Positions 1 through 30,000 of a stretch of 56,996 bases of DNA are shown here, one piece after another. The notes under the pieces are model-generated. The model was not told the origin of the DNA. It saw nothing but the letters and a program-made list of their open reading frames with translations, and did no database searches. Every line of letters starts with the position of its first letter. Position 1 is the stretch's first letter. Both the position numbers and the translations under genes were made by a program. The stretch spans positions 1-56,996 of the forward strand of contig JBGPQV010000020.1 of assembly GCA_041489255.1 (NCBI GenBank), read 5' to 3'. Origin of the DNA: Thermoplasmata archaeon. GTDB lineage: Archaea; Thermoplasmatota; Thermoplasmata; RBG-16-68-12; JAFNFQ01.

Positions 1-3000
1 CCTATGTATGTGTAGGGTTCAGCGCCGGAGGGGTTGTACATCTCCCCGAACGGGCGGTAGTCGGTCTGGAAGATTGTGGCCCTGCTCGCGTCTGTCATGA
101 CGCGGACGTGGCCCATGTTGTCCTGGTGGTAGTACGTCGTGCTTGAGCCGATGATCTTTGCGATTCGCAACCCGCCAGCCGTCACGTACTTCGTTGTCTG
201 TCCCGTGGGATTTTTTTCAAAGAGCACCTGGCCTCCGGCGAAGGCGAAGTGTGTCGTAGTGCCGCCCTCGACCGACTTCACACGTTGTCCGGTAGGGTCG
301 TATGTGAATGTGGCGAGTGTTTGCGCGTTCTTCATGACCTGCGTGAGCTCGTTCCGTGCGTTGAACGTGTATGACCAGGAGTCCCCGCCTGATTGGGACC
401 GCGTCAGGATGTTGCCGTTGTTGTCGTATGTGAACGAGACAGGCTGCTGCATTCCGGACTGGTAGGAATTGAGGCGGTTATACACTCCGTATTGATACGA
501 AGTCGCGACGCTGCCTTCTGTCTGCGTGAGCCGGTTTCCGACCTCATCGTATGTCCAGCCTAGGGTCCCCCAAGGGCCCGTCGATGATGTGAGGCGTCCG
601 AGCAAATCGTAGTTGTTCGCGTAATTCGTCCAGCTGCTGCATAAGCCATTCGTCCACGCAGAGCATTTCGCTGAAGTTCGAATGTTCGAGGCGGCGTCGG
701 GGAGCCATGTCATCTCAAGACGCCCTTCTGACGGCGTGGTCGAGGTCGCGCGGACAGTGACATATACTTGACTGGCACGAATCCAGCCTACATCCACGTA
801 GTTGACCTGGACACCTGCGATAAGTGCATTGACAGCTGCCTGTGTCCACACCTGTCCTGTGGCTGGATTCGTCGTCCATCGGAATCCGATGACGGCGTAA
901 GTCGTCCTGAGGGGTATCGCCGGACTCGGATAATCGACGCCATTGATTCGAAGCACGAGATTGATGCTCGCCAATTCCTCAATTTGCCTCTGAGTGACTC
1001 GTGCGACGACCGTCAAATCGACGGACTCTATCGATGCCCCTTGTGGGGCCTGCCAATCAGTAAGGCCGTATAGGTCCTTCTTTCCGACCGAGTTGGCATA
1101 GACATATGACGCATCGTAGTCCAGAGAAGTGTCGTCGACCTTCTCGTAGTTTGCGCCTGCGGACGGATAGTCCGACCATTGCACGCTCGCATCGCCCATG
1201 GGGCGGAGGATGAAGGAGCTTGTGGTCGAGGAGCTCTCGCGATACACCTTCAGACCCGTCATCCGTCCCAATGAATCGTAGCCATACCATGTCCGCAGGC
1301 CATTGGACAAATCGAAATATCTCAACTGGTCGTCCTTATCGTATGTGAACCCAGAGGCATAGCCTGTCACGGAAGTGACGCGGTCGAACTCGTCATACAG
1401 GTAGTTCACTACTGAAGTGTCTGGGTACGTGATCTTGGCTATGTTGCCCGCCGGGTCATAATCGAAATTGAATTGGTACGTGGCCACGTCGAACTGGGAC
1501 GTTTCGCGCAAGAGCCTCTGGCGCAGATCATAATCGTAGGAGACCGACATCGAACCCTCCGCGGCCATCTTGACATTGCCGTTCTTGTCATAGGTATAAG
1601 CGATCGTTCCGACATCGTCAGCGAGAGTGGTCATCCGCCCGAGACTGTCGTAACCGAATGTGGCGACGTTTTCGGACCGGTCGCGTTTCTGGCTGAGCTT
1701 TCCCACCTCATCGTACTTGAACGTCTCGAATCCCCCGTCAGGATAGTCTACACGAATCCGGTTCCCCCACTCGTCATAGCTTTGGTATGTCGTTCCCTTC
1801 TGATCCTTCACGAATATGACATTGCCCATATGGTCATACGCGAGGGTGGCCACGTATGTAACTGTCGCGTCTTTGTACTCCCGGGACTGCAGGAGCTGCC
1901 CCACCTCATCGTACGTCTCGACGACCTTCTGGCGGATTGTCGCGCCATTTGACTCATAAACCTCGTTCGTGACGGTATTTACCAGGTCGTCATAGGTGAT
2001 TTTCACGAACGTACCGTCGGGGCGAGTGATTCGTGTCGGTCGACTGAAGAAATCATATTGCTTGTCATAGACCATACCTTCGGCGGTGCGGTACCAGACA
2101 AGTTGGTCCCGCCAATCGTCCTTGTAATACTCGGTAGAGTAAACGGTCATTCCGGAATCGGAGTTGAGCCGCTCCACGCGAATCAGCCGCCCAATGCCGT
2201 CGTAGTAGCGCTTCGATTTGTATCCTCTCTCATTCGTGATGGTCACGGAGGAACCGGGGTCGTCGTAGGCATTCGTGATCGTGTAACGAACTCCCATCCG
2301 GTCCGGCGGAAGCGTGACCGTCGTGACTCGCCCATTTGCATCATAGCCATAATCCGTCCGTGCTCCTTCCGCATCTTGCTCCCAACGGAGCCGTCCGGTG
2401 GTGAAATCATAGTCGTAGGACGTGGAAACGACCGTCCCCGCCACGCGGCGAACCAAGCGCATGATCTGCGTCACAAGTATCCCCGCGGCATCGTTTACGA
2501 AGCCGACCTCAACCCCTGCCTCGAGGTTGTCCACCTCGGACTTCGTCCAAGTCATCCCAGTGGATGGGTTCGCGTATAGCCGGAAAGTCATTGTTGAGTA
2601 GGATGTGCCGAGACCGAATGGCTCCGACTCCTCAGTGCCTATCAGAAGAAGCAACCTCGAGGCCACTTGGCCAACCCCTGGTGTTGAGCCTGCGCGTGCC
2701 GTGACACGAATCTCGACGTAGGAAATCCTGTCGCCAGAGACTCCCGTGTCGTAGAAGCCAAAGAGGCTTCGCGTAGCCAGTCCGTAGCCTTGAATGTACG
2801 TGAGGTCCCCATCGGCCGGCGATTCGTCCACGCACTGCCATTCATTCAATTCATTATCGCATCCTGGCATGACCGTCCAATCATTGCGCGCCCCGTTCGA
2901 ATTCGGGGGTAGGACCTCTTCCGTCGCAGTGTCGGTGCGCATGCCTGAGGTAGCGGTCACATATGCGGAGTTAAACGCCGCTCCGTACTCGAAAGAGTAG

Positions 3001-6000
3001 TGTTCCCCTGAAGGTCCGATAGTCTCGACAATGTTGCCATTCGCGTCATTGGGGGAGTATTGCCGCAGGACGAAGGTCGAATTGCGCGTATAGGACCCGA
3101 TCGCCACCCCGGCTGTGTCCAAGATGTTCATTGTGCGGATCGCCGTCGGATATTGCCCGCGGCGCAGGGCCGCCACCTCAGTGGCAGTCAAGGCGCGGGA
3201 GGTCACGACGACTTCATCAATTCGCCCATCGAGGGTCTTGCCGGTCTGATGTGTGTATCCCACGAGAAGATCGCGGGGCATTTCGCAGAATCCTTGTGGG
3301 CTACTGACCACTTGCCAGCCGAGGTCGTTTCCATCCACATAGAGGTGCTGGGACCGCCCATCGAATGTTCCAGCCACATGAATCCATTCTCCCGTTGGGA
3401 GCCAATCAAGCCCCGGTATGACATGGGACGATGCATACACACATGGTGTTTCCGGGTTCGTTGTCAGATATGTCGTGAAGTCGATGACCCAACCGGACAA
3501 GGAGTATCTCAACGAAAACTGCCAAGCAACTGTGTCATCATCTATCGTGCCAAGCGCCAACGGATAGACCATATCGTAGGTATTTGACGGAAACGCGTCC
3601 ACCCAAAGCCAGAACGACGCGGTCATTTGTCTTCTGGGTCTTATTGTGCTGGAATAAGGAATCCTGAGATAGTCACCTGAACCATCTCCCCGGAATTCTC
3701 GGGCTCGGCCGAATACACCAGCGGCATCAACTGTGCCTGTGATCCACGCATCGTTTCCCAAGCCTGATGAGTCTCGCAAACTGGACGCGCCACTTGGCGA
3801 ATGCGCCAAGGAGGGAGTTTCCATATCTAGGCGAACCACATCGTCCAATGACTTGTTCGTCCATGATATGGAGGCGAGCAGTCCTCTGTGATTTCGTGTA
3901 TTAGTTGGAGTCGAATATGGTGATTGAGGGCGCGAGTAGGCAAACACGTCTCCTGGCCAGACCTCGTCAAAGATCGGACTCTCATATTCAATCGTCGTGC
4001 CATCCACGTCGTACACTCGGAAGAAGGCGGAAATCGGGAAGGCCGTTCGAGAGCCAAAATAATAGATCCATAAATCGACCGTGGAGTCCTCGGCAGTCAG
4101 TTGGTCCATAAGCCATCCGTCGCCAGAGAATGCCTTCACAAGTTGACCCGGGCGCAGGCCCTGGACTCGAACCTTGAACTTAGAGAGTTCGTCGTCTACG
4201 GTCGTGATGTCCCAGAAGGCGGCACCCCCACGGACTCTATATTTCGCGCACGAAAAATAGCGGGTTGATGTGATTCCTATATCACTAGCCCTCGCAAGAA
4301 GCATCGACCATCCATTCGTTTTCGAGGGGAGAGGCCCCGCCATGACACCTTCGACCTCTGCAGATTTTCCCCATCTCGCCGTATAGTATGCGCTCGGAGT
4401 GCCCAACGCCAAATCGATTCTCGATGGAACAGAACCCTCCGGAATATACACGTACTGGATGATGACGTCGTCTGGAGAAACCTCCAGGTATGTGGGAGGA
4501 TTCTTGTAGTAGATCGAGTGCTGATGCCATCCCGGCGCCACCGGAGGGCTGTAATGACTCTGAGTTCCACTTGGAGGGAAAGGATACTCAACCCAATGCC
4601 AGCCGTCCTGATCATCTCTGGGCTCATTCGGGGCGGGGTATTCATCTACCCAGAATGGCGTATCGCCCTGAGTGAGAAAGCCTGAGCGGGTCTTAATCAT
4701 GGGCTGGAACTCTCGCGGCGGCCAAAAGGTGTATTGATCGCCTCGGAAGTAGAGGCCGGGTCTCTGAAGTAATTCAGAGCCATCTGAATCGTAGACTGTG
4801 AGAACAGCCTTAGGCGATGAATTGGGAGGCATTTCGAGAATTACCTCATCCGCCCCATAGTCCTCAACGAAATCTGAGGCAAACAGCCCGGTCCATGGAT
4901 CGACGAGCGTAGCCCACTGACCTTTCGCCAAGTTCGATATGCGAATGGACTCCGAGCCGTGCACTGCCGTTTCCGCGACCCGCAGCGTTGACACGGGGTA
5001 GGTAATGAGTTTCACGGTGGTAATCGCTCCCTGTGCCTGAGCGAATCTCTTAACTCCCTGTCTCATAAGAAACCCGTTTATGTAGATGTCATAATCGTCT
5101 TGGCGAACAGAGAAGGCTATCCTGTACCAGTTCCCCGCAACGTAATCCGCGATAGGGTCCCAGCCGTCGGGAGACTCAGAGCCCATTTTCCCTTCATCGA
5201 ATGCGAACATCAAGGCCACACCACCCGACGAATAGAGGATAATTCTGTGGAACTGGTTAGATTCTCCCGGCGAGACGACGAATGAATATGTTCCTTCGTT
5301 AAGCGGCGCAGACAGCTGAAGTACTGCGGCTTCCGCTTCCGACGACGTCGATTTGATGAGCATGCTTGGAGCAACCCGATAGAAATTCGAGTAGTCGAAT
5401 TCAATCGATCCCAGACCCGAAGCCTGCCATTGCCCCATTTGTCGGTCCTCGAAGTCTGAGAATTGGACCAGACCACTTGCAGTCTGATCAACGCTTGCTG
5501 GTCGTCGCAAGAAACCGGCGCTGTCGGTATTCTCATAGGATGAAACCGTCTCGCGACCGATAGCATCCTTGGAGTAGACAAGGTTGCCCCAGTCGTCGTA
5601 TGAGCTGACCGTCGACGTTGACTCACTGGTGGAGCCGCCCTCATAGACGACTCCGCGAGCGGGCGCACCGTCTGAACCCAAGAATGTCACGGTGCGGCGC
5701 AGCTCATTGTTCCCCGCGTCCCGGACGATATGCGTTGATCCGGGGAAGGTGCCGTCGCCGAATAGATAGCTCTCGCTGCCGCGATTTTGGGAATCGGAAT
5801 ACGTGAATTTCGCGTATGTGACGCGGCCGTCGAGGAAAGTCCAGTCCATGCCCACACTCTTCAGGGGTACGCGACCCCTGTCAAACGTGCTTTGCTTCGT
5901 GACCACGTAGGTAAAAGCCTCCGTGCCCACATACGCCTTTTTGTAGCAATACTCCATACTCCCGCCCGTGGGGAATTTCGTGCTTCTAAGAAGGTACTTA

Positions 6001-9000
6001 TTCGCAAGGGTGTCGAGACATACATTTGAGGAACCGTACGCGAACTCAGTCGCAGGCCGATCGGCATCCGGACTCCGGACCTTCGAGAGACGGCCATCCG
6101 CGTCGTACTCGTATCGGATCGTGCGGTCGCCCTGCGAAATCGTCGTGACATGTCCATAAGCCCACGTGAAATGTACATCGCGCCTGGCGTCTCCGAGGGT
6201 GTCTCGAATGTAGTCAATATCGTGATAGCTATCGTACACCACATCAATCAGATTCCCTTGCAGGTCTTGGATATAGTCCAAGAGGTATGCCTGGCCCGTC
6301 CCTGCAAAGTTCGAGACGAGCCTGTAGCGAATACCCGCAGAGTTGAATAAATCGAACTCGTATTGGTTGACAATGGTGAGTGTGAATTGCTCGCCTTGCT
6401 TATTCTCGAAAATCCCTCTGGAATCGAAGTTGATATAATACGCTTGTCCGTCCCATAAGTGAAGGAATGGCAATCGAATCGAAGGCAGGTTCAGGCGCCA
6501 GCCCGGTCCGAAAGCCCTGTAACCGTCTTCTGTGTAAAGATATGGACGGTCTACACCCCCACTGGAGACAAAAAGCGTGGGCGGTCGATATACGCGCGAG
6601 ATTGAAACATCAAGTCCGCGACCAGGGAGGAACAGGTCCGTTTGCCTGATTGTGAGCTGGCCATTTCCTGGAGAGATGAATTGCTCCAGTTGCTGGAAAT
6701 AGGATTCATACGGGGAGAGCCCCTCGCGGCTCCATGTCTCCCCAAGCCCCGCTCCAGTCGCAGCAGAGAGTGGAAGCGACGCGAAGCGGACTTCGCAGTC
6801 TCCGAAATTATAGCCTACGCTCACATCTATAGTCCATACGAGGGTGGCCATGCGAATGGACTGACGAGCCGCGCTAAGGAACGTTGGATGCTTCATCTCC
6901 ACCATAATTCTCTCACTGTCAAGCCATCCGACATCCGTCCTCCTCTTGTGCCAAATATCGAGGTTACGGCTCGGGTCATAAGTTGAGTAGTATCCCCAGA
7001 AAATGTGGATGTTATTGTCAAGGTCTACCGAGATGGTCGGCGAATTGACGAACTGTGTGTAGTCCACGACCTGATAGGAGCCACTGTATGGAGTGCTCAA
7101 GGTTGCGTACCCCAGGGTACCATCATGTCCCAATCGGGACACATAAGCAATATGAACCACGTCGTTTGAATCGACCGCAGCACTCCATTGTGTTTCCTTG
7201 TTCACATTCTGGCGAAGACCGATGTTCAGAATCTGCGGTCCCTGTTGAGGCAGCCATCCGTTCGCGGTGTAGTCCCTCCAGCGAATGGACGAGGAGGTGT
7301 AATGAGCCGAGACAACGCGGAGCTGGCCAGCCGAAAGCGGGATAAGGCTAATAGCCTCCCGGCCGTCAGCGGGAATCTCCGTGGGCCATTCACCAATCTG
7401 GGTGAAGCTGGAACCCCCGAGAATCGTCGAGCGGAATATGCGGATGTGGGCGGTACCGGGTGGAACGGGGTCATGAATGAAGACTCCGCCGCACCAGAAG
7501 AATCCGTCTGTGCCAATGGCAACTGAAACCGGCATTTTCGATTTCTCGCCGGCGGAATAAGTATCATACACCAACGAAACAGAAGGCCAGCTTATTCCGT
7601 AATCACCTATGGAGCCCAACAGGAAATACATATCCATCCACGTCGGATCAAGCAAGCACAGCGCTACGGATGACCCGACCTGATCCACGTCGAAGGATAC
7701 TGGCGAGATACTGAGCCCAACAGAGGATACGCCCGCCCAAGTCTTCCCGTCTCGGGATGAAGTGTAGGCGATGTCTGAGCCAGTATTGAAGAAAACCCAG
7801 TATCTTCCGTTCGCTTCGAATGTTTTTCTCTGCGTGGAATATGATGTGGCCATGTAGCTGTGAGAACGGGCGGCTGTTGATGGGTCCAGGTAGGATACTC
7901 CGAACGGGAACTCAACCACTATGCCCGGATAGGGTTCTCCATGAATAGCGACCGGACCCGCCAGCATCTGGCCAATGCCGACATCCGCCCAGTCAAAACG
8001 GACGCGTTCCAGCCATTGCCCGGGATCGCCTGATTCGCCAACATCTGCCCTGAGCAGCGGCGTATCGAGGGTTGTGAGCTGGGAGAATCCCCCGAAGTCC
8101 GTTACTGTATCATCCTCTGTCTGCACAAACGTATTCCTCGTTTGAGATTTCCATGTCAGACGGTAACTGCTTATCGTCGAGTTCCATGACTGCTGGAAGT
8201 CTACTGTGATTTTCACGGGTGACGATTCGTTGAACACGTAGGTCATTGTGACGTTGCCTTGATTGATACTGTCGATGACTACATCGTAGCGACTCTGGAA
8301 GAATGAGTCGTTCCAAGCTTCAATTCTGGAATCAGAAATATTCGAAGTCGGTGTCGTTTCGAGGATGAAAGTGCTCGCTGAAATCTGTTGGAGGCCGGTC
8401 TGATCACTCAGTTCGAGCATGTGAGGATCCCTTTTGTTGAAGGAGTAGTTGCCATCGCGCGTGATATAGACGATTTGATCGGTGAAGTTGGTGGCAAATG
8501 GGGAGAAATCGCCTGACGCAGGTGTGGAGCTCACCACGCCGGGAGAGCGGAAGATGGCATCCACGTTACCTTCCGGAAGACTCGGCGTGACATGAACGTC
8601 GATCCTCAAGACATCCAAAGTCGCGATTCCTTGTACAGTGTCGTCAGGAGTGTCCACTTGGGCATCCCACAGTCGCACGACGGGGGATCCTTGGTTGATC
8701 TCTGTTTCATTGAGTGGGATTGGGTCGAACCACTGGTCGACATCCGAATTGCATATCGCGACCGTTCTCCATGCGGAGGGGTAGGCACCACCTTGGCCCA
8801 CCTGAACGAGCACGTTTTCCGAGCCCGGGCTGAGTCGGCTGCATTCGACGACCAAAAACGTCGATTCGCCGAGTTGCGAAACACCTGACCATGAGAACCG
8901 GATTTCCAGGGCAAATTCCGGATTGTAGACGGCATCGATTTTCGTCTGCATCTGCGTTACGCGGTTATCCGGTGAGCAGTCGACGCATCGGACTCCGACT

Positions 9001-9740
9001 TTCAGGTTGTTGATGTCCGTGGAGGTCCATTCAGAACCGGTAATCGGGTTCTTGGCGTCCGTCCTGCTGTACCGCACATATGAGGTCGTCGTACTCTGTG
9101 TCGCCCCGTTGTTGTAGCTTGAGTCTCCCACTTTGACATCTATTGCGACGGAGGCGGCCTGGCTCGAGGTCTTCTTGACCGCAGCAGACGATGTCACCGT
9201 GAAATCGTCGACGTCAGGGGGATCGGTGAGGCTTGGATTCTGCATCGTCACCCCCACGCGATTTCCGTTTGTGTGGCCTTGCCTGCAAGTCGCATCCCCG
9301 TCATGAGTATCCGCCCCATCGTCTAGCTCGTCCCAAGGTGTTGCGTCCGTAGAACACGGCGTCCCCACAGCCCAGCCGTTCACGTCTGTCCCATCGGGTA
9401 GTAGAACGAGACCTAACTGATTCGTTGGGCTTCTGTCCACCTCCCTATAGGAGCAACGAGCATCATCCGACTCGTTGAGGTCAGTCCGATTGCCCCCGCA
9501 ATTCCCGCCGGTCAAAGTGCCATTAATCAGCGACTGGGATGTGGGCAGGTAGTGTTCGACGGACCCTGATTGGCTTTCGCTGTCAGGTCCTGAAGAAGTC
9601 ATCGTCCCGCTATTCACCGGTGGTCGGGGTTCCGTTCCACCTCCCGAGATCGGGTCCGCGGCCACAGGTCCCACCAGTGGCGAGAATACAGTCAACAACA
9701 TCGCCAAAGCTACACATACGCATGTAATGCGTCCAAGCAT
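1..9740 (-). CDS. Giant secreted RHS/YD-repeat protein (at least 3246 aa; 3' end beyond the left edge), probable polymorphic toxin or adhesin
   Basis: Translated by hand from ATG 9740 (GGAGG upstream; in-frame TGA at 9744-9746 just before it). N-terminal signal peptide MLGRITCVCVALAMLLTVFSPLVGPVAA-DP. DUF6531-like segment ISPGNGQLTIRQTDLFLPGRGLDVSISRVY...FGPGWRL at ~6480-6680. Many YDxxGR/N repeats. RHS core YYHQDNMGHVRVMTD...TDYRPFGE...PYTYIG at 1-140. The ORF track lists no stop-terminated ORF in this frame below 9744, consistent with an open frame to the edge. Confidence 0.93.
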   Translation of the reverse strand, partial: MLGRITCVCVALAMLLTVFSPLVGPVAADPISGGGTEPRPPVNSGTMTSSGPDSESQSGSVEHYLPTSQSLINGTLTGGNCGGNRTDLNESDDARCSYREVDRSPTNQLGLVLLPDGTDVNGWAVGTPCSTDATPWDELDDGADTHDGDATCRQGHTNGNRVGVTMQNPSLTDPPDVDDFTVTSSAAVKKTSSQAASVAIDVKVGDSSYNNGATQSTTTSYVRYSRTDAKNPITGSEWTSTDINNLKVGVRCVDCSPDNRVTQMQTKIDAVYNPEFALEIRFSWSGVSQLGESTFLVVECSRLSPGSENVLVQVGQGGAYPSAWRTVAICNSDVDQWFDPIPLNETEINQGSPVVRLWDAQVDTPDDTVQGIATLDVLRIDVHVTPSLPEGNVDAIFRSPGVVSSTPASGDFSPFATNFTDQIVYITRDGNYSFNKRDPHMLELSDQTGLQQISASTFILETTPTSNISDSRIEAWNDSFFQSRYDVVIDSINQGNVTMTYVFNESSPVKITVDFQQSWNSTISSYRLTWKSQTRNTFVQTEDDTVTDFGGFSQLTTLDTPLLRADVGESGDPGQWLERVRFDWADVGIGQMLAGPVAIHGEPYPGIVVEFPFGVSYLDPSTAARSHSYMATSYSTQRKTFEANGRYWVFFNTGSDIAYTSSRDGKTWAGVSSVGLSISPVSFDVDQVGSSVALCLLDPTWMDMYFLLGSIGDYGISWPSVSLVYDTYSAGEKSKMPVSVAIGTDGFFWCGGVFIHDPVPPGTAHIRIFRSTILGGSSFTQIGEWPTEIPADGREAISLIPLSAGQLRVVSAHYTSSSIRWRDYTANGWLPQQGPQILNIGLRQNVNKETQWSAAVDSNDVVHIAYVSRLGHDGTLGYATLSTPYSGSYQVVDYTQFVNSPTISVDLDNNIHIFWGYYSTYDPSRNLDIWHKRRTDVGWLDSERIMVEMKHPTFLSAARQSIRMATLVWTIDVSVGYNFGDCEVRFASLPLSAATGAGLGETWSREGLSPYESYFQQLEQFISPGNGQLTIRQTDLFLPGRGLDVSISRVYRPPTLFVSSGGVDRPYLYTEDGYRAFGPGWRLNLPSIRLPFLHLWDGQAYYINFDSRGIFENKQGEQFTLTIVNQYEFDLFNSAGIRYRLVSNFAGTGQAYLLDYIQDLQGNLIDVVYDSYHDIDYIRDTLGDARRDVHFTWAYGHVTTISQGDRTIRYEYDADGRLSKVRSPDADRPATEFAYGSSNVCLDTLANKYLLRSTKFPTGGSMEYCYKKAYVGTEAFTYVVTKQSTFDRGRVPLKSVGMDWTFLDGRVTYAKFTYSDSQNRGSESYLFGDGTFPGSTHIVRDAGNNELRRTVTFLGSDGAPARGVVYEGGSTSESTSTVSSYDDWGNLVYSKDAIGRETVSSYENTDSAGFLRRPASVDQTASGLVQFSDFEDRQMGQWQASGLGSIEFDYSNFYRVAPSMLIKSTSSEAEAAVLQLSAPLNEGTYSFVVSPGESNQFHRIILYSSGGVALMFAFDEGKMGSESPDGWDPIADYVAGNWYRIAFSVRQDDYDIYINGFLMRQGVKRFAQAQGAITTVKLITYPVSTLRVAETAVHGSESIRISNLAKGQWATLVDPWTGLFASDFVEDYGADEVILEMPPNSSPKAVLTVYDSDGSELLQRPGLYFRGDQYTFWPPREFQPMIKTRSGFLTQGDTPFWVDEYPAPNEPRDDQDGWHWVEYPFPPSGTQSHYSPPVAPGWHQHSIYYKNPPTYLEVSPDDVIIQYVYIPEGSVPSRIDLALGTPSAYYTARWGKSAEVEGVMAGPLPSKTNGWSMLLARASDIGITSTRYFSCAKYRVRGGAAFWDITTVDDELSKFKVRVQGLRPGQLVKAFSGDGWLMDQLTAEDSTVDLWIYYFGSRTAFPISAFFRVYDVDGTTIEYESPIFDEVWPGDVFAYSRPQSPYSTPTNTRNHRGLLASISWTNKSLDDVVRLDMETPSLAHSPSGASSLRDSSGLGNDAWITGTVDAAGVFGRAREFRGDGSGDYLRIPYSSTIRPRRQMTASFWLWVDAFPSNTYDMVYPLALGTIDDDTVAWQFSLRYSLSGWVIDFTTYLTTNPETPCVYASSHVIPGLDWLPTGEWIHVAGTFDGRSQHLYVDGNDLGWQVVSSPQGFCEMPRDLLVGYTHQTGKTLDGRIDEVVVTSRALTATEVAALRRGQYPTAIRTMNILDTAGVAIGSYTRNSTFVLRQYSPNDANGNIVETIGPSGEHYSFEYGAAFNSAYVTATSGMRTDTATEEVLPPNSNGARNDWTVMPGCDNELNEWQCVDESPADGDLTYIQGYGLATRSLFGFYDTGVSGDRISYVEIRVTARAGSTPGVGQVASRLLLLIGTEESEPFGLGTSYSTMTFRLYANPSTGMTWTKSEVDNLEAGVEVGFVNDAAGILVTQIMRLVRRVAGTVVSTSYDYDFTTGRLRWEQDAEGARTDYGYDANGRVTTVTLPPDRMGVRYTITNAYDDPGSSVTITNERGYKSKRYYDGIGRLIRVERLNSDSGMTVYSTEYYKDDWRDQLVWYRTAEGMVYDKQYDFFSRPTRITRPDGTFVKITYDDLVNTVTNEVYESNGATIRQKVVETYDEVGQLLQSREYKDATVTYVATLAYDHMGNVIFVKDQKGTTYQSYDEWGNRIRVDYPDGGFETFKYDEVGKLSQKRDRSENVATFGYDSLGRMTTLADDVGTIAYTYDKNGNVKMAAEGSMSVSYDYDLRQRLLRETSQFDVATYQFNFDYDPAGNIAKITYPDTSVVNYLYDEFDRVTSVTGYASGFTYDKDDQLRYFDLSNGLRTWYGYDSLGRMTGLKVYRESSSTTSSFILRPMGDASVQWSDYPSAGANYEKVDDTSLDYDASYVYANSVGKKDLYGLTDWQAPQGASIESVDLTVVARVTQRQIEELASINLVLRINGVDYPSPAIPLRTTYAVIGFRWTTNPATGQVWTQAAVNALIAGVQVNYVDVGWIRASQVYVTVRATSTTPSEGRLEMTWLPDAASNIRTSAKCSAWTNGLCSSWTNYANNYDLLGRLTSSTGPWGTLGWTYDEVGNRLTQTEGSVATSYQYGVYNRLNSYQSGMQQPVSFTYDNNGNILTRSQSGGDSWSYTFNARNELTQVMKNAQTLATFTYDPTGQRVKSVEGGTTTHFAFAGGQVLFEKNPTGQTTKYVTAGGLRIAKIIGSSTTYYHQDNMGHVRVMTDASRATIFQTDYRPFGEMYNPSGAEPYTYI

Positions 9741-9745
9741 TCTTC

Positions 9746-9812
9746 AAACCTCCTGCCGAGCAAATGAGCGGCAAAGCGGCCATTGGATCGAATCTATATA
9801 GCGCTTTCTACA
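9746..9812 (-). promoter_or_regulatory. Putative BRE/TATA promoter and Shine-Dalgarno of the RHS gene
   Basis: Minus strand reads GAAAGCGCTATATAGA about 55 nt upstream of the ATG, and GGAGG 7 nt before the ATG. Confidence 0.5.
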
Positions 9813-10250
9813 GCTATGCTGCAAAGAAGTGCTGAGAATCACTTCAACGGGATTCATGGAATTCGTGGGATTCCACTCTCTGAACCTATTCAGTCCATGT
9901 GATATCATTGACGGGGCACGACCTAACGTCCGGAGAATCCATCCGAGATAGGTACGGCAACCCGTGCCTTGACGACCTTCTCCCAAAGCAGGCTGAGAGG
10001 GCCCCGCGAGAGTGCCTCGATGCGCTGGAGTCGACGGAGGTCAAGTTGACCAAAGGCCTCCCGATTGTCATCGTAGCTTCTGCTCGACATTCTCCGTCCC
10101 TTGGGCGTTACATCTTCTGCGCCCTTAATACCGTGAATCCCCCACCAGAAATTTCTCAGAATTATAGAACTAACAGTTTCGACAGAGAATGAGCAGAGAT
10201 GAGACTGGACAACCCGCTTCAACTGAGTCCACTCACCTTGACTGGGATCA

Positions 10251-10499
10251 TCAAGGTTGCAGGTTCGACGCTCTCCTCTTCATGAGCTTCATCCAGCCGC
10301 CAGACTCGTAGATCCCGAGCTGCCTGCGCGTCAGAATCTTCTCGAACTCGGTCCAGTCGATCATCTCCAGCCTATCGTTCCTCCCGTTGGAGAATCTCAG
10401 GGTGCTGGTGCCTCTGACCCTGCTGGGCAAGAGGCCGCGGCTGACGGCTATGCGCTTCGCTTCCTCTAGATCGATTTCCCGCAGTTCCGGCATGCCCAT
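10251..10499 (-). CDS. Small conserved-looking hypothetical protein
   Basis: 82-aa ORF with native-looking codon usage and motif PSRVRGT..LRF...LEMIDWTEFEKIL. Confidence 0.7.
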   Translation of the reverse strand: MGMPELREIDLEEAKRIAVSRGLLPSRVRGTSTLRFSNGRNDRLEMIDWTEFEKILTRRQLGIYESGGWMKLMKRRASNLQP

Positions 10500-10708
10500 C
10501 CCTTCGCTGCGAACAGACGTCTGAAAGGGCTGTATGCCAAGAAGGGTATTTCTGTCTTTCGATTGTCAGACAAACTAGCAGTTCTCTGCCTATCTGGCTA
10601 GTGTCAGACGAAATGCCAGTTCCACTGGCAGTGGAGGGGCGTCCAGACCCTCCGGCCAGAAGCGAGGGAAGTCTTATTGTGCTGGATGGCCCATTCGTGC
10701 CCGATCCC

Positions 10709-11587
10709 ATGCCGTTCGAATTGGTCGTTTACCGCCCGCGCGGAAGGCCCCCGGTGACCGTGGACGAAATTGACAGAATCGTCGACCAGCTCCCTCACTT
10801 CACGAAGGAGGAGCTCGGCGGGAACCGCGTGCAGTGGCGGTACAGGAACCCCGAGACCGGGGTCCACTTCGGCATCAAGTACGACCCCGAGCAGAGGCAC
10901 CAGGCACAGTTCGAATGGAACGACTCGCCCATGAGCATCTCCATGGCCCTCGGCAGGCCGATGTTCTTCGGCCAGGAAGCGGCGCCGCTTATCGACATGA
11001 TACTGAAGAACCTGAACCTCGCGGTCCAGGACATCCAGAAGACCGCCCTCTACAGGCAGCCCGCCAAGCTGACGGCGGAGCAGATCAGGGAATCGTGGGA
11101 GAAGAGCAACGCGGAGGAGTCCAGCGCCATCCTCTCCGCCGACAAGAGGGTCACGAAGGCCACCCGCGACAAGATGGACTACTTCTGGGGCTTCACGAGC
11201 GCGAAGGCGAAGCTCCAGGAATCGTACGGGCCGGATGTCCTCGTCCCTTCCATAAACCTGCACCGCGGGAGGGAAAACACGGTCAGGACGTCGTGCATAT
11301 GGCCTGACACCGCGAAGGTCGCGCTGCCCGAGGTCGACTTCGTGCTCGTGCAGAGAGTGCAGAAGAGCCTGCTGTCGAAGACTACTGTCTCCGGTGTCGC
11401 CGTGTATGCCAGGATTGCTGAGATCCTGAAGCCCAGGAGCGAGGAGAAGACGGATCCGGTGAGGCACCTGTTCTTCAACCAGGCCCCCGACAAGGGGCTC
11501 CTGCGGTACCTCTCCGAGATGAAGCTCTACTCCATCAAGTCCTATCCGAAGGTGTCGCCGGACGAGATAGTCGAGATCGGCAAGTAG
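10709..11587 (+). CDS. Hypothetical protein (~292 aa)
   Basis: Long ORF with strong GC3 bias starting at ATG 10709 (MPFELVVYRP). The track's extension to 10601 runs through a palindrome-rich intergenic stretch. Confidence 0.75.
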   Translation: MPFELVVYRPRGRPPVTVDEIDRIVDQLPHFTKEELGGNRVQWRYRNPETGVHFGIKYDPEQRHQAQFEWNDSPMSISMALGRPMFFGQEAAPLIDMILKNLNLAVQDIQKTALYRQPAKLTAEQIRESWEKSNAEESSAILSADKRVTKATRDKMDYFWGFTSAKAKLQESYGPDVLVPSINLHRGRENTVRTSCIWPDTAKVALPEVDFVLVQRVQKSLLSKTTVSGVAVYARIAEILKPRSEEKTDPVRHLFFNQAPDKGLLRYLSEMKLYSIKSYPKVSPDEIVEIGK

Positions 11588-11590
11588 AGC

Positions 11591-11983
11591 TCACCGGCGT
11601 CTCGACGACGGTTTGCCCCGCTTCAACGACGAAAGGTAGGATATCCTTAGGAGTCTCAGGGCTGCCGCCGCACCTCCGTTCCCATCGACCATGAACTTCG
11701 ACTTGAACCAGCCCCAGCCTTGGCTCGGCGGCGCTCTGTCGATCATTCGGCTGAACCCGAGCTCGCGAGGCGGCGGGAGGATGAAGACCTCAATCCTCTC
11801 CTTGCTCGGGCGCAGTTCCGCGAACACTCGCCCGCCATTCTTGCTCTTCAAGGAGATCCACTGCGACATCACCCGCACGACGATGTCATCATTTCTGGAG
11901 GATGCGAACTCTCTCAACTCGTCGAGCAATCTCCTGAGGCACGCCCTTGTCTCAAGTCCCGCACGAGTCATCGCGTTGGCCAA
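11591..11983 (-). CDS. DUF5655-like small protein
   Basis: WISLK...VFAELRPSKERIEVFI...GWG pattern; starts 1 nt after the methyltransferase stop. Confidence 0.55.
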   Translation of the reverse strand: MANAMTRAGLETRACLRRLLDELREFASSRNDDIVVRVMSQWISLKSKNGGRVFAELRPSKERIEVFILPPPRELGFSRMIDRAPPSQGWGWFKSKFMVDGNGGAAAALRLLRISYLSSLKRGKPSSRRR

Positions 11984-11984
11984 G

Positions 11985-12731
11985 CTAGCCCTCCACCGCC
12001 ATCTTCCTCATGATGAAGAGGTACTTGAAGCCCCGAAGGAAGAAATTCCGCTCTCTCGCCTTATGCTCCCACATCGGATTGGATCCGCTGTCGTGGTGTC
12101 TCACCAACACCACGGTGTCCACAGGCTCGAAGAGTCCCGCCAAGATGCCGTAGAGCCTGAAGCCGACAGGCGTGTAGCACCTGCGCCTGTACTCGTCGGA
12201 GATTACCCAGGCGGCATGCTTCCCTGGCTTCAGAGTCCTGTGGATTTCTGTGGCGACCTTCGCGATTTCCTCGAAGAAGCGTTCCGTGTTGGCGGGGATC
12301 TTGCCGATGCACCGCCCGTCGCCGGAGTAACGAATGTTGTCGGAATATGGCGAATCGACGAAATGGAAGTCAACGCTGTCGTCTTCGAACGGGAGATGGC
12401 GGGCGTCGTTCCTGACGATGTCCGGCCTGGATGGGTTCAGGTCGAGCCCGATGACCCGCCGCCCGAGCGCTCTCGCCACGTCAATAGTCGTGCCGCTTCC
12501 CGCCATGCAATCCACCACGAGATCCCCGGGCCGGGTGTACCTCTTCAGGAGATTCCACACCGCCATGGCGGGAGTGCATCCCTTGTACCTGTTGCTACCG
12601 AAGACCGACCCATCGGGGCTCTGATATGGGAAGTCCCAACACGTCGACGCTTCAATACTGGTGCACCATGAGGGCTTATCGATTTCCCCCGCCAAAATCA
12701 TGCGATTGAGCTGCTGAGACAAGCCGACCAC
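11985..12731 (-). CDS. SAM-dependent amino-methyltransferase (N4/N6 DNA methylase or Trm11-like family)
   Basis: YTRPGDLVVDCMAGSGTT SAM-binding motif, GLDLNP, NDARHLP and motif IV variant DSPY. Start may be ATG 12701. Confidence 0.8.
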   Translation of the reverse strand: MVGLSQQLNRMILAGEIDKPSWCTSIEASTCWDFPYQSPDGSVFGSNRYKGCTPAMAVWNLLKRYTRPGDLVVDCMAGSGTTIDVARALGRRVIGLDLNPSRPDIVRNDARHLPFEDDSVDFHFVDSPYSDNIRYSGDGRCIGKIPANTERFFEEIAKVATEIHRTLKPGKHAAWVISDEYRRRCYTPVGFRLYGILAGLFEPVDTVVLVRHHDSGSNPMWEHKARERNFFLRGFKYLFIMRKMAVEG

Positions 12732-26904: not shown

Positions 26905-27000
26905 GCCAGCTCGGCCGGTCAGTTTTCGCGACTTGACACTTGACATGTCTAGATTTGGCTTATATGAGCTCAGAGCAGTCATGAAGTGAAGGTGGACGAA

Positions 27001-30000
27001 ATGTCCGATGAACCTAAAAGGCGGGCGGCCCTGCGCAGACAGAGACAGTCGTTTTTCGGGAAAATCATCGTGTTCTGCACGATTGCGGCGGTGATGGGCA
27101 GCGGTCTCGTCGCCTACAACACGTCGCGTTTCATCCTGACCGACAGGAACAACGTGACGGCATACATCCCGGACACGATCCTCACCGATGCTCCCGGCAG
27201 CGCCCTCGTGATGCTGACAGACAGACACGGCGCCCCCCTCGCGGGGGAGCCTGTGACGGTGGAGGTCACACGAGATGGCAACCTGGTCTGGACGGAAACA
27301 GCGATGACAGACGAGGGTGGTGTCGCAACCCCGTCTTTCACGGGACTGTCTCTCACCGGGTCGTCGGAGGTTACAGTCAGGGGGGCCGGAGAGGTCCTGA
27401 CGAAGAAGGTCACTGTGAAGACGACCACGCGCATCTTCCTGCAGACGGACAAGCCGATCTACCAGCCTGGCCAGGTCGTCCACATACGCACGCTCGCCTT
27501 TTCCGGCACGTCTCCGACGGTCTCTCTGCAGAACGTCACACTGGAGATATCCACGCCAGAGGGCGATAGGATATTCCGCAAGATCCTCGCGCCTGATGAA
27601 TATGGCATAGCCAGCTATGACTACCAGCTGGGAAGTAGACTCCCCTTAGGACTGTACAAGATCAAGGCGGCAGTAGGATCGGAGAGCACTGAGAAGGCGT
27701 TCGGCGTACAGAGATACGTCCTGCCCAGGTTCGTGATCGAGTTCAGGGACATGCGCGGTTGGTACGGATTCGCTGACGACATCGACGGCAGGGTCTGCGT
27801 CGATTATGTCTTCGGCGAGCATGTCCAGGGGACCGCGACCCTGAGCGTGAGAGCGTTCGTGGGCGACTGGCATGACGTGACAGTTGTCACACGAAGCCTC
27901 TCAAACGGCTGCATGAGTCTGCACGTTCCCGCCACAGACCTGCCGCATGACGGCGCCACGGGATATGCCGAGCTCAAAGCCACGGTGACAGACACGGCCG
28001 GGCACTCCGAGAGCAAGACGAAAGATATCCCCCTGTCGAGCACGCCGATACTGATCACGGCCCTCTCGGACACGAACGTGCCGGGCGCCCAGTCCAACTA
28101 CTACATCGTGGCGCGATGGCCCGACGGGACGCCTGTCTCATCCGCGCAGGTCAGATCCTATTCCAACGGCTACAGGGACACCACTACCGATGTCAGAGGC
28201 GTCGCGCTTGTCTCTTTCACATATCAGGGTCAAGACTCGCTCAGCATCACCGTCACGAAGGGCAATTACTCGAGCACCCTCAGCACCGGCTTGCGCTCGG
28301 AGGCTGGCATTAAGGTTGTCGCGGATAAAGCTCATTACGAAGTCGGCGAGACCGCGAACTTCCAGGTCTACTTCTCTGGCAGCACACTCACCAACTGGGC
28401 ATACTACGAGGTCGTCGCGAGGGATTTCGTAATCATGACCGGCCGCGTCACGCTGACCGGCGGCACATCCTCGTTCTCCATGCAAATCGATAGGCCCATG
28501 GTCCCGCTCGCGGAGGTCCGCGTCTACAAGACCCTCTCAGACCTGACCGTGTCCAAGGACAACGTCGTGTTCACGGTCGGCACATTCTCCGATCTGAGGG
28601 TGAATATCACCGCGGACAAGCAGGAATACCGCCCGGGAGAGGATGTGAGATTGGACTTTGCGGTGAGCGATGGCGCTCAACCGACAGCGGCCGCGCTCGG
28701 AATCGCGATAGTCGACAGAGCGGTGTACGAGGTCGATGAAAGGTTCAAGGGCCTCGAGGACGCGCTCAACGGAAACCATGGCGACGTCTCCTATGACTCG
28801 CAGGTGATTGACTATGTGTACGGGGAGAGCTCGATTCCCCCGGACGCAGGAGCACCGCTCGTCGTGTCGCCTGAAGCCGCCGCCGAAGGGCAGATGCAGA
28901 GCACACTGCCGGTGAAGCGGCAGATGGCCGCGCAGGCCCAGGACTCGGCGGTATCGTTCTTCTGGTCAGCACTCCTGTTCGTCGGTCTGACGGGCTACGT
29001 CGGGCTCGTCGTCCTAGGCATCCGCAACAGGAAGTACGCCGCAGTGGTCGTTGCGTTGGCGGTCATGATTCCCGCGTTCGCCGCCCTAGGCTACTTCGCG
29101 CAGAGGAACTACACCTCATTCCCATCTGACTCCGGTTTCGGCGGCGCTCTCCTTGGAAGTGGCAGTGGCGGCGCAGGCATGGGATTTCCGACTGCGGGTA
29201 GTGCACCGGTTCTCCTTGGTGGCGGCAATGAGCGGTGGTTCTATGGCGATCAAGGCGGGCAGACAGGGATTACTGGCGGGTTGATAGCCGCGCCCGCGAG
29301 GGTCAGGACATTCTTCCCCGAGACATGGTATTGGAATCCCTCGCTGATCGTCGGCCCGGACGGCGTGGGCAACGTGACCCTCCCGGCTCCAGACTCCATC
29401 ACCACCTGGATGGTCGATGCTGTTGCCTCGACGAAGGATGCGAAGTTCGGCAGCGGCAGCTCGGAGGTGCGTGTCTTCCAGGAGTTCTTCGTGGAGCCTG
29501 ACATCCCCGTTGCGGCTGTTAAAAACGACACCTTTGATCTTGATGTCTCGGTGTTCAATTACGTGAGCGACCTGAACGTCACGAACGATGTGACGGTGCA
29601 GTTGATGCCTGACTCCTGGTTCACGATTACGGGACCCTCGCAGAAGTCTCTCTCACTTCCTCCTTTCAGCGTCCTGAGCACCTACTTCACGATCACCGCC
29701 ACGGAGATAGGAGAACACAATGTCACCGTCCTAGCGGGAAATGCCAGGATAAGCGACGCGGTCGTCAGAGTCATCCGAGTGGACCCGCGCGGCTCGCCTA
29801 CCGATGAGACGTTCGGCGGGCGCCTCACAGGCAGTGAAACGAAGTCGGTGACTCTCGTTCTGCGAACCGACAGGATCCCGGGGACGGAATCAGCATCCCT
29901 GAGGATACAGCCGTCCATGGCCGCCGCCGTCCTCGACGGCGCGGACAACTACATACATTATGTCTCCGGGTGCGGCGAACAATCGATGTCGACCCTCAAC

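Follow-up and report, generated by a model that had tools for sequence, protein, structure and literature searches.

What kind of protein is encoded by a single open frame of more than three thousand codons that runs off the end of an archaeal contig? The DNA analysed here (the window) is a stretch of 56,996 nt, contig bases 1-56996, with window base 1 being contig base 1, and the frame in question lies at its left end. RHS ‘cocoon’ proteins are used by bacteria for toxin delivery to neighbours, and RHS polymorphic toxins follow a common plan in which a YD shell with an N-terminal plug (DUF6531) leads through a core to a PxxxxDPxG autoprotease site, a variable toxin and a downstream immunity gene. 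We propose, with a probability of roughly 0.85, that the product of the window gene is a polymorphic-toxin precursor of the RHS (YD-repeat) type, exported through Sec by a sediment archaeon of Thermoplasmata type. It is a new, truncated representative of the already known Sec-dependent RHS polymorphic toxins, and its toxin end (DPxG, C-terminal domain, immunity gene) is predicted solely from paralogs and relatives.

The gene occupies 3..9740 on the minus strand, as do its features given below, and appears in the ORF listing as a single ORF of 3246 aa with an ATG start and an open 3’ end, reading as an RHS polymorphic-toxin precursor without the last ~60 core residues, the toxin domain and the stop. 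The first-pass annotation of this DNA had described one uninterrupted minus-strand frame of at least 3246 codons and had named an in-frame stop within 1-9740 as evidence against itself; translation of 3..9740 was free of stops. The stop-to-stop frame measures 3247 codons, a single codon separating the upstream stop from the ATG, and among the 21 ORFs of at least 100 aa that overlap 1..12000 the runner-up in length within 1-9740 has 175 aa. A Shine-Dalgarno sequence had also been claimed, and a Shine-Dalgarno-like hexamer, GGAGGT (9748..9753), can be read by eye at 9753-9748, with 7 nt between it and the ATG (9740-9738). A TATATA stretch lies near the gene start, at 9795-9800. The N-terminal sequence fits the proposed Sec signal peptide (residues 1-28; 9657..9740), judged on hydrophobicity and by eye: MLGR is followed by a 19-residue hydrophobic core (mean Kyte-Doolittle 2.42) and GPVAA-DP, with predicted cleavage between VAA and DP. 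This leader is the sole TM-like stretch among the 3246 residues, and a hydrophobic leader likewise stands at the N-terminus of 9/9 relatives examined.

The assignment to the RHS family, with YD repeats, was upheld by RHS_repeat (PF05593; E 2.5e-36, six stretches, Pfam scan of the whole protein), by YD_repeat_2x (TIGR01643; E 2.2e-20, NCBIfam scan) and by sequence matches to solved Rhs shells (8h8a 5e-21, 8qja 4e-13, 7pq5 1e-7). A DUF6531-like plug and the first RHS/YD repeat block make up residues 1011-1400 (5541..6710; Pfam/NCBIfam), the main RHS/YD repeat block lies at residues 2440-2860 (1161..2423; Pfam, NCBIfam and solved-shell homology), and the last RHS repeats with the first part of the RHS-associated core, aligned with a paralog and with the near relative L023, fill residues 3020-3246 (3..683), which end in ...YRPFGEMYNPSGAEPYTYI at the contig end. 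The DUF6531-like segment of the first-pass annotation held up in part: there is a match at residues 1022-1085 (6486-6677), but it is weak, scoring 19.1 bits in the whole protein and 22.2 bits alone, under the Pfam cut-off of 24.1 bits.

About 60% of the protein is non-RHS, and the shell insertions, lectin-type domains among them, total ~1000 residues. Ahead of the shell lie an optional N-module (residues 39-388; 8577..9626), delimited by comparison with paralog C32 and relatives, and an N-terminal family-specific region (residues 389-1010; 6711..8576) modelled by AF2 as a beta-sandwich followed by a 7-bladed beta-propeller. Inserted in the shell are a ConA-like lectin/glucanase beta-sandwich (residues 1422-1598; 4947..5477; AF2 and VIA), a beta-rich stretch without assigned family that is kept in 7/7 aligned members (residues 1599-2010; 3711..4946), and a Laminin_G_3 (ConA-like) domain (residues 2019-2190; 3171..3686; Pfam E 2.5e-18, 67.1 bits), a region that exceeds its counterparts in the relatives by ~100 residues. 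The outward-facing beta-rich parts are the sandwich and propeller before the shell, the two ConA/LamG-type domains and three phage-related copies of a further domain described below.

The AF2 model of residues 389-1010 has a pLDDT of 85.7 and a pTM of 0.75, and its propeller carries an SxDGxTW box. Foldseek and VIA matched it best to enzymes active on carbohydrates and to lectin propellers (5mum Z 28.9, PLL 5c9o Z 26.6, CylK 7ron Z 29.9), against VIA scores of Z ~22-23 for generic WD40 propellers. The modelled propeller is therefore only moderately nearer to the carbohydrate-active propellers (Z 27-30) than to the WD40s, so that we infer glycan binding by the propeller from fold. A ‘sialidase’ label, to which Foldseek matches to NanB/NanC and putative neuraminidases pointed, was set aside, as the VIA margin over WD40s was moderate. 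In the model of residues 1422-1598, VIA matched an accessory domain of sialidase BT_1020 (5mqs_A; Z 22.0, rmsd 2.0 over 164) and the lectin domain of V. cholerae sialidase (2w68; Z 16.9), and the same residues gave a weak Laminin_G_3 match (E 1.6e-4). The AF2 model of residues 1400-2260 reaches pLDDT ~50-90 from 1599 to ~1940 and is poor beyond (pLDDT <50 for model residues 540-861); the assignment of residues 1940-2260 comes from Pfam Laminin_G_3 alone. Folds of this kind could also belong to a toxin-less surface adhesin or glycan-processing enzyme, in which the YD shell would be a mere scaffold, as in teneurins, and the propeller and lectin domains would be the functional parts: well over half of the protein is non-RHS, glycoside hydrolases and lyases are among the top propeller matches, ConA-type domains are present, and the toxin end lies outside the data. 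We return to this alternative where the complete relatives are described.

The same genome holds two complete RHS paralogs, on contigs C8 and C32, each with NNPxxxxDPxG and a C-terminal domain, and five co-linear giants occur in other members of the same archaeal order; with the two proteins of genome G021 (G021a/b) the window protein is co-linear at 33-34% identity over ~1930 residues. When residues 1001-3246 were used as query, 13/41 genomes of the order gave a match, the own genome included, and the same-genus genome G001 gave none. The N-terminal region (389-1010) matches 301 library representatives at E<=1e-3 and 103 at E<=1e-10. Pfam PF25023 (teneurin-like YD-shell) is present in database members of the family, one named member comes from a Methanomassiliicoccales MAG, and the top database matches outside the family are bacterial RHS proteins. 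The family is a sizeable one, of secreted RHS proteins of 2,500-3,400 residues that share one N-terminal architecture.

The N-module varies within this family. Residues 39-388 share 61% identity with residues 42-377 of paralog C32, the module is found in G021a/b as well, it is missing from C8, G011 and G024, and a segment scan of it matched no Pfam family. Inside it lies copy A (residues 121-271; 8928-9380) of a repeated ~150-aa domain, with copy B in the shell (residues 2286-2436; 2433..2885) and copy C at residues 2865-3003 (732..1148); all three were detected by masked segment searches, whole-protein blastp against itself having given the identity match only. Among 7 members aligned, copy B is shared with G021a/b only and copy C is unique to the window protein. 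Copy B matched phrog_2448 (E 1.4e-4), and copy C matched phrog_6368 (E 1.7e-16) and phrog_2448 (E 6.4e-14); the repeated domain is phage-related, and two of its three copies sit within shell sequence. In the ESM Atlas the top score of copy B, 0.80, was to viral clusters, which we regard as a lead only.

A protein with such bacterial company raises the question of whether the gene belongs to its contig. Elsewhere the window encodes archaeal markers (PolB, RadA, an archaeal phosphopantothenate synthetase, a presenilin-type SPP and a G1P-dehydrogenase-type Fe-ADH_2), and among the 120 RadA homologs listed the 9 that are organism-named are 9/9 archaeal, at 80-87% identity (6 ‘Thermoplasmata archaeon’, 3 ‘Euryarchaeota archaeon’), in agreement with the Thermoplasmatota host first proposed. 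The own genome shows no sign of methanogenesis, since McrA was not found in it. An assembly or binning artefact, in which a bacterial RHS fragment was misjoined to an archaeal contig near 9.8 kb, would account for the position of the gene at a contig end, its lower GC (0.549 vs 0.591 for the genome, z -2.3), its atypical tetranucleotide profile (r 0.78 vs a genome mean of 0.94) and its bacterial top matches beyond the family. However, paralogs C8 and C32 are equally biased in composition (r 0.69 and 0.75, GC 0.527 and 0.565), co-linear homologs exist in other archaeal genomes of the same order, including one on a single contig of 1.99 Mb, and the Methanomassiliicoccales MAG has its own family member. 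Moreover, another sample (X3) yielded a contig of 1269 nt that covers 9427-10695 and is identical to it throughout, and a 53,419-nt contig from X1, which may be the source sample, covers 112-12000. Because an independent sample bridges the junction, the chimeric bacterial join at ~9.8 kb against which the first-pass annotation had warned is unlikely, and the artefact is the reading to which we give least credence. Among the contigs listed for runs X4 and X5 none bridges 9.6-10.0 kb, which is uninformative either way.

At the other end of the gene, the start of the RHS core had been placed at the window edge, and this agrees with the last 75 residues, which align at 44% identity with the C8 paralog immediately ahead of its NNPVSFTDPTG autoprotease motif; the frame stops ~60 residues short of that motif. 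The RHS-associated core family TIGR03696 gave no score on the window and scored above cut-off at two further loci of the genome, C8 and C32. The contig end cuts the gene before the autoprotease motif, so that neither the toxin domain nor an immunity gene falls within the data. No k-mer overlap (21-127 nt) joined window base 1 to any other contig of the assembly, the 900-nt ends of 41 contigs contained no core-end motif, a genome-wide regular-expression search for the missing core end returned nothing, and a tblastn search of the assembly, for which the core ends of C8 and C32 served as queries, matched C8, C20 and C32 only. Weak tblastn matches on C13 and C30, considered as the missing core end, proved to be noise on inspection.

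The assembly probably broke at base 1 because another RHS copy or variant also contains the segment 1..141. In run X1 a 580-nt contig, with a depth of 33.3 vs 15.4, covers 1-141 and extends 439 nt past base 1, and run X4 branches at 141, reading LRIAKVTTT in place of LRIAKIIGS; this shared end of 141 nt points to a further copy of the core. In L023 the same tail (79% identity) reads on to NNPLKNADPSG, and a C-terminal domain (256 aa) and an ORF (152 aa) follow. These observations bear on whether the gene might be decaying, its locus truncated or disrupted just past the window and its toxin no longer functional. Fragments are frequent in RHS loci, short frames occur in G010, G136 and G183, and the end of the window gene is outside the data; but 3246 codons without stop or frameshift, X1 sequence that goes at least 439 nt past base 1 and a near relative that reads straight into the cleavage motif make decay very improbable.

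Complete relatives indicate what the toxin end should look like. NPxxxxDPxG stands near the C-terminus in 9/9 full-length frames examined (C8, C32, G027, G011, G021a, G021b, G024, G010a and G010b). The C-terminal domains of the relatives differ among themselves, and one of the seven scanned contains a Pfam toxin family, Ntox24 in the co-linear giant G027 (27.1 bits vs a cut-off of 24); a TM-like, GxxxG-rich segment is present in all nine examined C-terminal domains that reach 100 aa. Orphan-type cassettes or core fragments occur in the order and phylum (G010:C37, G183:C3, with short frames also in G136), and on G010:C37 a full gene is followed by two short frames, each a core fragment with DPSG. 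In 8/8 related loci an ORF of 70 aa or more on the same strand starts -32 to +72 nt from the RHS stop; these putative immunity ORFs were called mechanically in DNA of 59% GC and match no family. Against the toxin-less surface protein considered above, the window frame enters the RHS-associated core, which in every complete relative leads to a cleavage motif and a C-terminal domain, and both the Ntox24 domain and the orphan-type cassettes speak for toxins; we consider it improbable.

For the Sec-exported RHS toxin that we prefer, we can present a proposal of how it would act. Some 60 residues past the contig end the core would close with NNPxxxxDPxG, going by the paralogs and relatives, and an aspartyl autoprotease at this motif would cleave off a C-terminal domain of ~110-260 residues that would be kept inside the shell. 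This domain would consist of a hydrophobic GxxxG-rich segment followed by a toxin part that is soluble and variable. A small immunity gene would come next, and nearby the core end would occur once more, as an orphan cassette or as a second allele. After Sec export the RHS protein would remain at or near the cell surface, where its propeller and lectin domains, to judge by their folds, could bind the glycans of neighbours. The toxin would then be released, with the hydrophobic segment aiding target-membrane entry or permeabilisation, and no T6SS or Tc-type injector would take part in delivery.

WapA of Bacillus subtilis is one of the Sec-dependent RHS toxins of monoderm bacteria, in which cell-wall-binding repeats anchor the protein to peptidoglycan. 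The window protein likewise has a signal peptide in place of PAAR/VgrG and a long YD-repeat shell, a C-terminal toxin and immunity gene are expected here, and delivery would proceed without a dedicated injector. It differs in that its host is an archaeon without peptidoglycan, in being ~900 residues longer, and in having the beta-sandwich and 7-bladed propeller, the ConA/LamG domains and a ~1000-residue shell insertion. No cell-wall-binding family was found in it by Pfam at E<=0.1 for the whole protein or E<=1 for nine segments. The description ‘WapA-like’ is thus apt, as a heuristic, for the signal peptide and the lack of an injector-adaptor domain, and fails for the cell-wall-binding repeats; since these were not found, the protein would work like WapA but is no WapA ortholog.

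T6SS Rhs effectors have a PAAR, VgrG or prePAAR N-terminus. The window YD shell is homologous by sequence to those of such effectors (8h8a/8h8b, 8qja, 7pq5 Tre23), but the protein carries none of these domains and begins with a signal peptide instead. The earlier remark that no PAAR or VgrG features were visible proved correct: Pfam found none in the protein, and neither PAAR (PF05488) nor TssC/VipB (PF05943) was found in the 96.5%-complete genome, in searches whose controls matched. The relatives’ C-terminal domains resemble Tse5 in being rich in GxxxG hydrophobic helices, Tse5 reportedly being a pore-forming T6SS toxin described with helices of this type. TcB-TcC cocoons and eukaryotic teneurins combine a YD shell with a beta-propeller and a plug domain, as does the window protein with its putative plug; its own propeller, by contrast, is N-terminal to the shell and best matches carbohydrate-active/lectin propellers. 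SpvB and TcdB-mid domains were not found in a Pfam scan of the window protein, and a VRP1 search for a TcA partner found nothing, though no positive-control genome matched.

Inter-archaeal conflict systems are poorly known, and the family offers material on how a toxin that has no injector might pass through an S-layer and a membrane of ether lipids, even though the window gene itself is incomplete and the kind of system is already known in archaea. New here in detail are the N-terminal sandwich and 7-bladed propeller, the ~1000-residue shell insertions and the three phage-related copies. A bolder idea, which we hold only tentatively and think rather unlikely, is that the family is a lineage-specific archaeal contact-dependent weapon without injector, with exchangeable modules (propeller, ConA/LamG domains and phage-derived ~150-aa domains in loops of the shell) on a cocoon and a C-terminal domain with its own membrane-entry segment. 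If so, the modules would pick which neighbour’s glycosylated surface is bound, the N-module (61% identity) being swapped between paralogs, the GxxxG-rich segment of the encapsulated C-terminal domain would carry the variable toxin across the archaeal lipid membrane, and target range would be reprogrammable at both ends of the protein.

Toxins of this kind have been known in archaea since 2012, when RHS polymorphic toxins were described in Methanosarcina acetivorans (Zhang et al., 2012; PMC3482391). Makarova et al. (2019, as related by citing papers) predicted polymorphic toxin systems in archaea, and according to PMC8416519 the predicted systems were uncharacterised experimentally as of 2021. 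Our searches found no literature joining Thermoplasmata with RHS repeats and, by title and abstract opening, nothing relevant since 2019 on archaeal Sec-linked YD-repeat toxins. M. acetivorans has a classical archaeal RHS-repeat locus, of which the cassette-like core fragments in the window protein’s relatives are reminiscent; the window protein comes from another phylum (Thermoplasmata-type), a close relation is not shown, and the family’s N-terminal region and shell insertions are not described in the available portions of PMC3482391. The RHS core family (TIGR03696), for which M. acetivorans matched as positive control, was detected in 27/401 genomes of our phylum sample, the own genome included.

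The minus strand of the window's left end carries a single 3246-codon frame (3..9740) that starts with ATG and stays free of stops through base 1, as the first-pass annotation had read it. The second-longest ORF within 1-9740 has 175 aa, so this is not a chance ORF. Its ATG and the upstream stop are one codon apart, and GGAGGT, 7 nt ahead of the ATG, would be the Shine-Dalgarno sequence proposed earlier. The product begins with MLGR, followed by 19 hydrophobic residues (mean Kyte-Doolittle 2.42) and GPVAA-DP, which agrees with the signal peptide and VAA-DP site that had been suggested (residues 1-28, minus strand, from leader sequence and hydrophobicity); no other part of the protein is TM-like. 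The contig, one of 41 in a 2.74-Mb genome that is 96.5% complete, starts at the same base as the window, so the gene is cut by the assembly and not by the window. We put at roughly 85% the probability that it encodes the precursor of a Sec-exported RHS polymorphic toxin.

The YD repeats reported at first reading are well supported, with RHS_repeat matching in six stretches (Pfam, E 2.5e-36) and YD_repeat_2x at E 2.2e-20 beside a partial RHS_core match (NCBIfam), and phmmer against PDB sequences matched four solved Rhs proteins (8h8a at 5e-21, 8h8b, 8qja and 7pq5). The DUF6531-like segment held up in part: a match lies at residues 1022-1085, with 19.1 bits (22.2 for the segment alone), both below the Pfam cut-off of 24.1. 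The Rhs-associated core model TIGR03696 gave no score on the window; elsewhere in the same genome it exceeds its cut-off twice, in the complete paralogs on contigs C8 (2791-aa frame) and C32 (1781 aa). The start of the RHS core does lie at the window edge, since the last 75 residues align to the C8 paralog at 44% identity and end about 60 residues short of its NNPVSFTDPTG motif. The cleavage motif, toxin domain and any immunity gene of the window gene fall outside the data.

No continuation of the frame was found among the contigs of its own assembly. Public contigs were compared with bases 1-12000. Run X1, possibly from the source sample, has a 53,419-nt contig extending over 112-12000 (depth 15.4) and a 580-nt contig of depth 33.3 that takes in 1-141 and reaches 439 nt past base 1; in run X4, a contig sharing 1-141 then branches, encoding LRIAKVTTT where the window has LRIAKIIGS. 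The depth of the short X1 contig and the X4 branch indicate that the core end is common to two RHS variants or copies, which is probably why the contig stops at base 1. Shared core ends are usual at polymorphic-toxin loci with orphan cassettes and are a typical cause of contig breaks. With the last 227 residues as query, metagenome contigs yielded 382 relatives (611 matched stretches), one of them close: locus L023, 79% identical over the last 146 residues, the runner-up reaching at most 41%. It continues from EPYTYI through GEFRD...NNPLKNADPSG into a 256-aa C-terminal domain, and a 152-aa ORF begins 72 nt past its RHS stop. As the missing piece of the window gene it was ruled out, its DNA being only 78% identical, and it is instead a relative. 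Its 533-aa frame (L023:151-1752, plus strand) opens with a hydrophobic, signal-like stretch and goes on through some 200 residues of the RHS core and DPSG to the C-terminal domain; on this short contig it could be a 'mini-RHS' or else an orphan cassette.

The nine full-length frames examined all finish with NPxxxxDPxG and a domain C-terminal to it, save that in G021a, one of two proteins of genome G021, the contig ends just past the motif. The C-terminal domains examined that reach 100 aa, nine in number, all start with a TM-like, GxxxG-rich segment, after which comes a dissimilar soluble part. That of genome G027 matches the toxin family Ntox24 (Pfam, E 5.3e-6, 27.1 bits, cut-off 24), and a Pfam scan of six others found no family. 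At all eight loci an ORF of 70 aa or more on the same strand starts between -32 and +72 nt relative to the RHS stop; being mechanical, uncontrolled calls in GC-rich DNA with no family match, these ORFs are no more than candidate immunity genes. At the C8 paralog the next ORF overlaps it and has 135 aa and no family (L021:2925-3332, minus strand); after it comes a 409-aa ORF (L021:1550-2779, minus strand) in which a C-5 cytosine DNA methylase domain is represented by its C-terminal part only.

Of 41 same-order genomes (own included), 13 matched residues 1001-3246, as did 5 of 21 in the high-quality subset; the sole same-genus genome did not. Five giants are co-linear: those of G027 (2233 aa with the N-terminus masked, on a single contig of 1.99 Mb), G011 (2784), G021 (3029 and 3332) and G024 (2754). 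Both G021 proteins share 33-34% identity with the window protein from residue 1 to about 1935, and the top match in a large protein database is just 34% identical. Database members are mostly nameless or called 'RHS repeat-associated protein'; one, labelled hypothetical, comes from a Methanomassiliicoccales MAG. Across a phylum sample, TIGR03696 exceeds its cut-off in 27/401 genomes (own included), 13/262 high-quality genomes and 22/162 genera. Some archaeal loci, such as G010:C37:28001-46000 (L020) and G183:C3:327908-332484, have behind a full-length RHS gene two or three short frames that each contain part of the core and a separate DPxG, which is the classical orphan-cassette arrangement.

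Behind the leader, the window protein has an N-module (residues 39-388, window 8577-9626, minus strand), of which residues 39-381 share 61% identity with 42-377 of the C32 paralog (G000:C32, L022:1695-7019); outside it, identity between the two proteins falls to about 25%. The G021 proteins have this module, and C8, G011 and G024 lack it; the window protein and the C32 paralog apparently came to share it by exchange or recent duplication. The family-specific region that follows (389-1010) was modelled by AF2 from 43 aligned sequences (pLDDT 85.7, pTM 0.75) as a beta-sandwich and a 7-bladed propeller. The propeller best matches CylK (Z 29.9), glycoside hydrolase 5mum (28.9) and rhamnose-glucuronate lyase (27.7), then the lectins BP39L (27.0) and PLL (26.6), against about 22-23 for generic WD40 propellers. 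The family consensus of the N-terminal region keeps an SxDGxTW box, which we take to be an Asp-box. Residues 389-1010 alone matched 301 representatives at E<=1e-3 (103 of them at E<=1e-10, 18 at E<=1e-30), mostly N-terminally in proteins of 2500-3400 residues.

A plug-like segment and the first RHS block (1011-1400; Pfam, NCBIfam) lead to an insertion of about 1000 residues that interrupts the shell (1400-2440) and is conserved to about 2010 in 7/7 aligned members. It contains a ConA-like domain (1422-1598) resembling the accessory domain of sialidase BT_1020 (VIA Z 22.0, rmsd 2.0 over 164 residues) and the Vibrio cholerae sialidase lectin domain (VIA Z 16.9), a beta-rich part without family, and a Laminin_G_3 domain (2019-2190; Pfam, E 4.6e-18 for the whole protein). 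The other RHS blocks and the beginning of the core occupy 2440-2860 and 3020-3246 (Pfam, NCBIfam, C8 alignment). A repeated domain of about 150 residues occurs as copies A (121-271, window 8928-9380), B (2286-2436, window 2433-2885) and C (2865-3003, window 732-1148), all on the minus strand and matching one another at E 5e-6 to 1e-13, two of the three inside RHS shell sequence. Among seven aligned members, B is otherwise found only in the G021 proteins and C in the window protein only. Copy C, the best-scoring, matches the C-terminal third of phrog_6368 (1.7e-16) and phrog_2448 (6.4e-14), phage protein families without assigned function; for copy B, ESM Atlas gave weak viral leads only (score 0.80).

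The other 47 kb of the window carry archaeal genes, including a family-B DNA polymerase, RadA, archaeal phosphopantothenate synthetase, a presenilin-type signal-peptide peptidase and a G1P-dehydrogenase-type Fe-ADH_2 protein. Nine of 120 listed RadA homologs have an organism name (80-87% identity; six 'Thermoplasmata archaeon', three 'Euryarchaeota archaeon'); McrA was not found in the genome. The RHS gene is lower in GC (0.549 vs a genome mean of 0.591 in 9.7-kb windows, z -2.3), and its tetranucleotide correlation to the genome is 0.78 (genome mean 0.94, 5th percentile 0.825), as might be expected had it been joined to the archaeal contig in a chimera, possibly at the bacterial join near 9.8 kb considered in the first-pass annotation. 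However, the paralogs deviate in the same direction (C8 0.69, C32 0.75), so the bias is a trait of the gene family, for which amino-acid content or foreign origin may be responsible, and a 1269-nt contig from another sample (X3) bridges 9427-10695 with zero differences, leaving a chimera highly improbable.

The evidence for a Sec-exported toxin precursor is divided between the window protein, with its leader, shell homology, core start and accessory folds, and the paralogs and relatives, in which the architecture is complete. Such a protein would be exported by Sec, enclose its C-terminal toxin within the shell and cleave itself at DPxG; the propeller and lectin domains could bind neighbouring cells, and the hydrophobic segment might aid membrane entry. 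PAAR and TssC were not found in the genome (96.5% complete), and a TcA search of it, without positive control, gave no match. WapA-type toxins are Sec-dependent RHS toxins, and the window protein would work in the same way; however, Pfam finds no wall-binding repeats in it, so it is not a WapA ortholog. In Methanosarcina acetivorans, cassette-bearing RHS polymorphic toxins were reported in 2012 (PMC3482391), and polymorphic toxin systems were later predicted to be widespread in archaea (Makarova et al., 2019); our searches turned up no paper connecting Thermoplasmata with RHS repeats, and we believe that the architecture of this family merits description.

Elsewhere on this archaeal contig, 26986-31473 (plus strand) encodes a 1495-aa alpha-2-macroglobulin-type protein (MG2, A2M_BRD, A2M, TED), and the ORF after it (642 aa) has a weak HTH match. 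The ribonucleotide reductase large subunit (53111-56785, plus strand) is split by a LAGLIDADG_3 domain, probably an intein, and GC drops to 0.54-0.55 at about 51-54 kb. Finally, the genome has very many stop-to-stop frames of at least 1200 codons across many contigs, several of them ending in much the same hydrophobic sequence, ...G(V/I)GTAVDL(A/T)ILL..., suggesting a giant surface protein family whose members share a C-terminal anchor.
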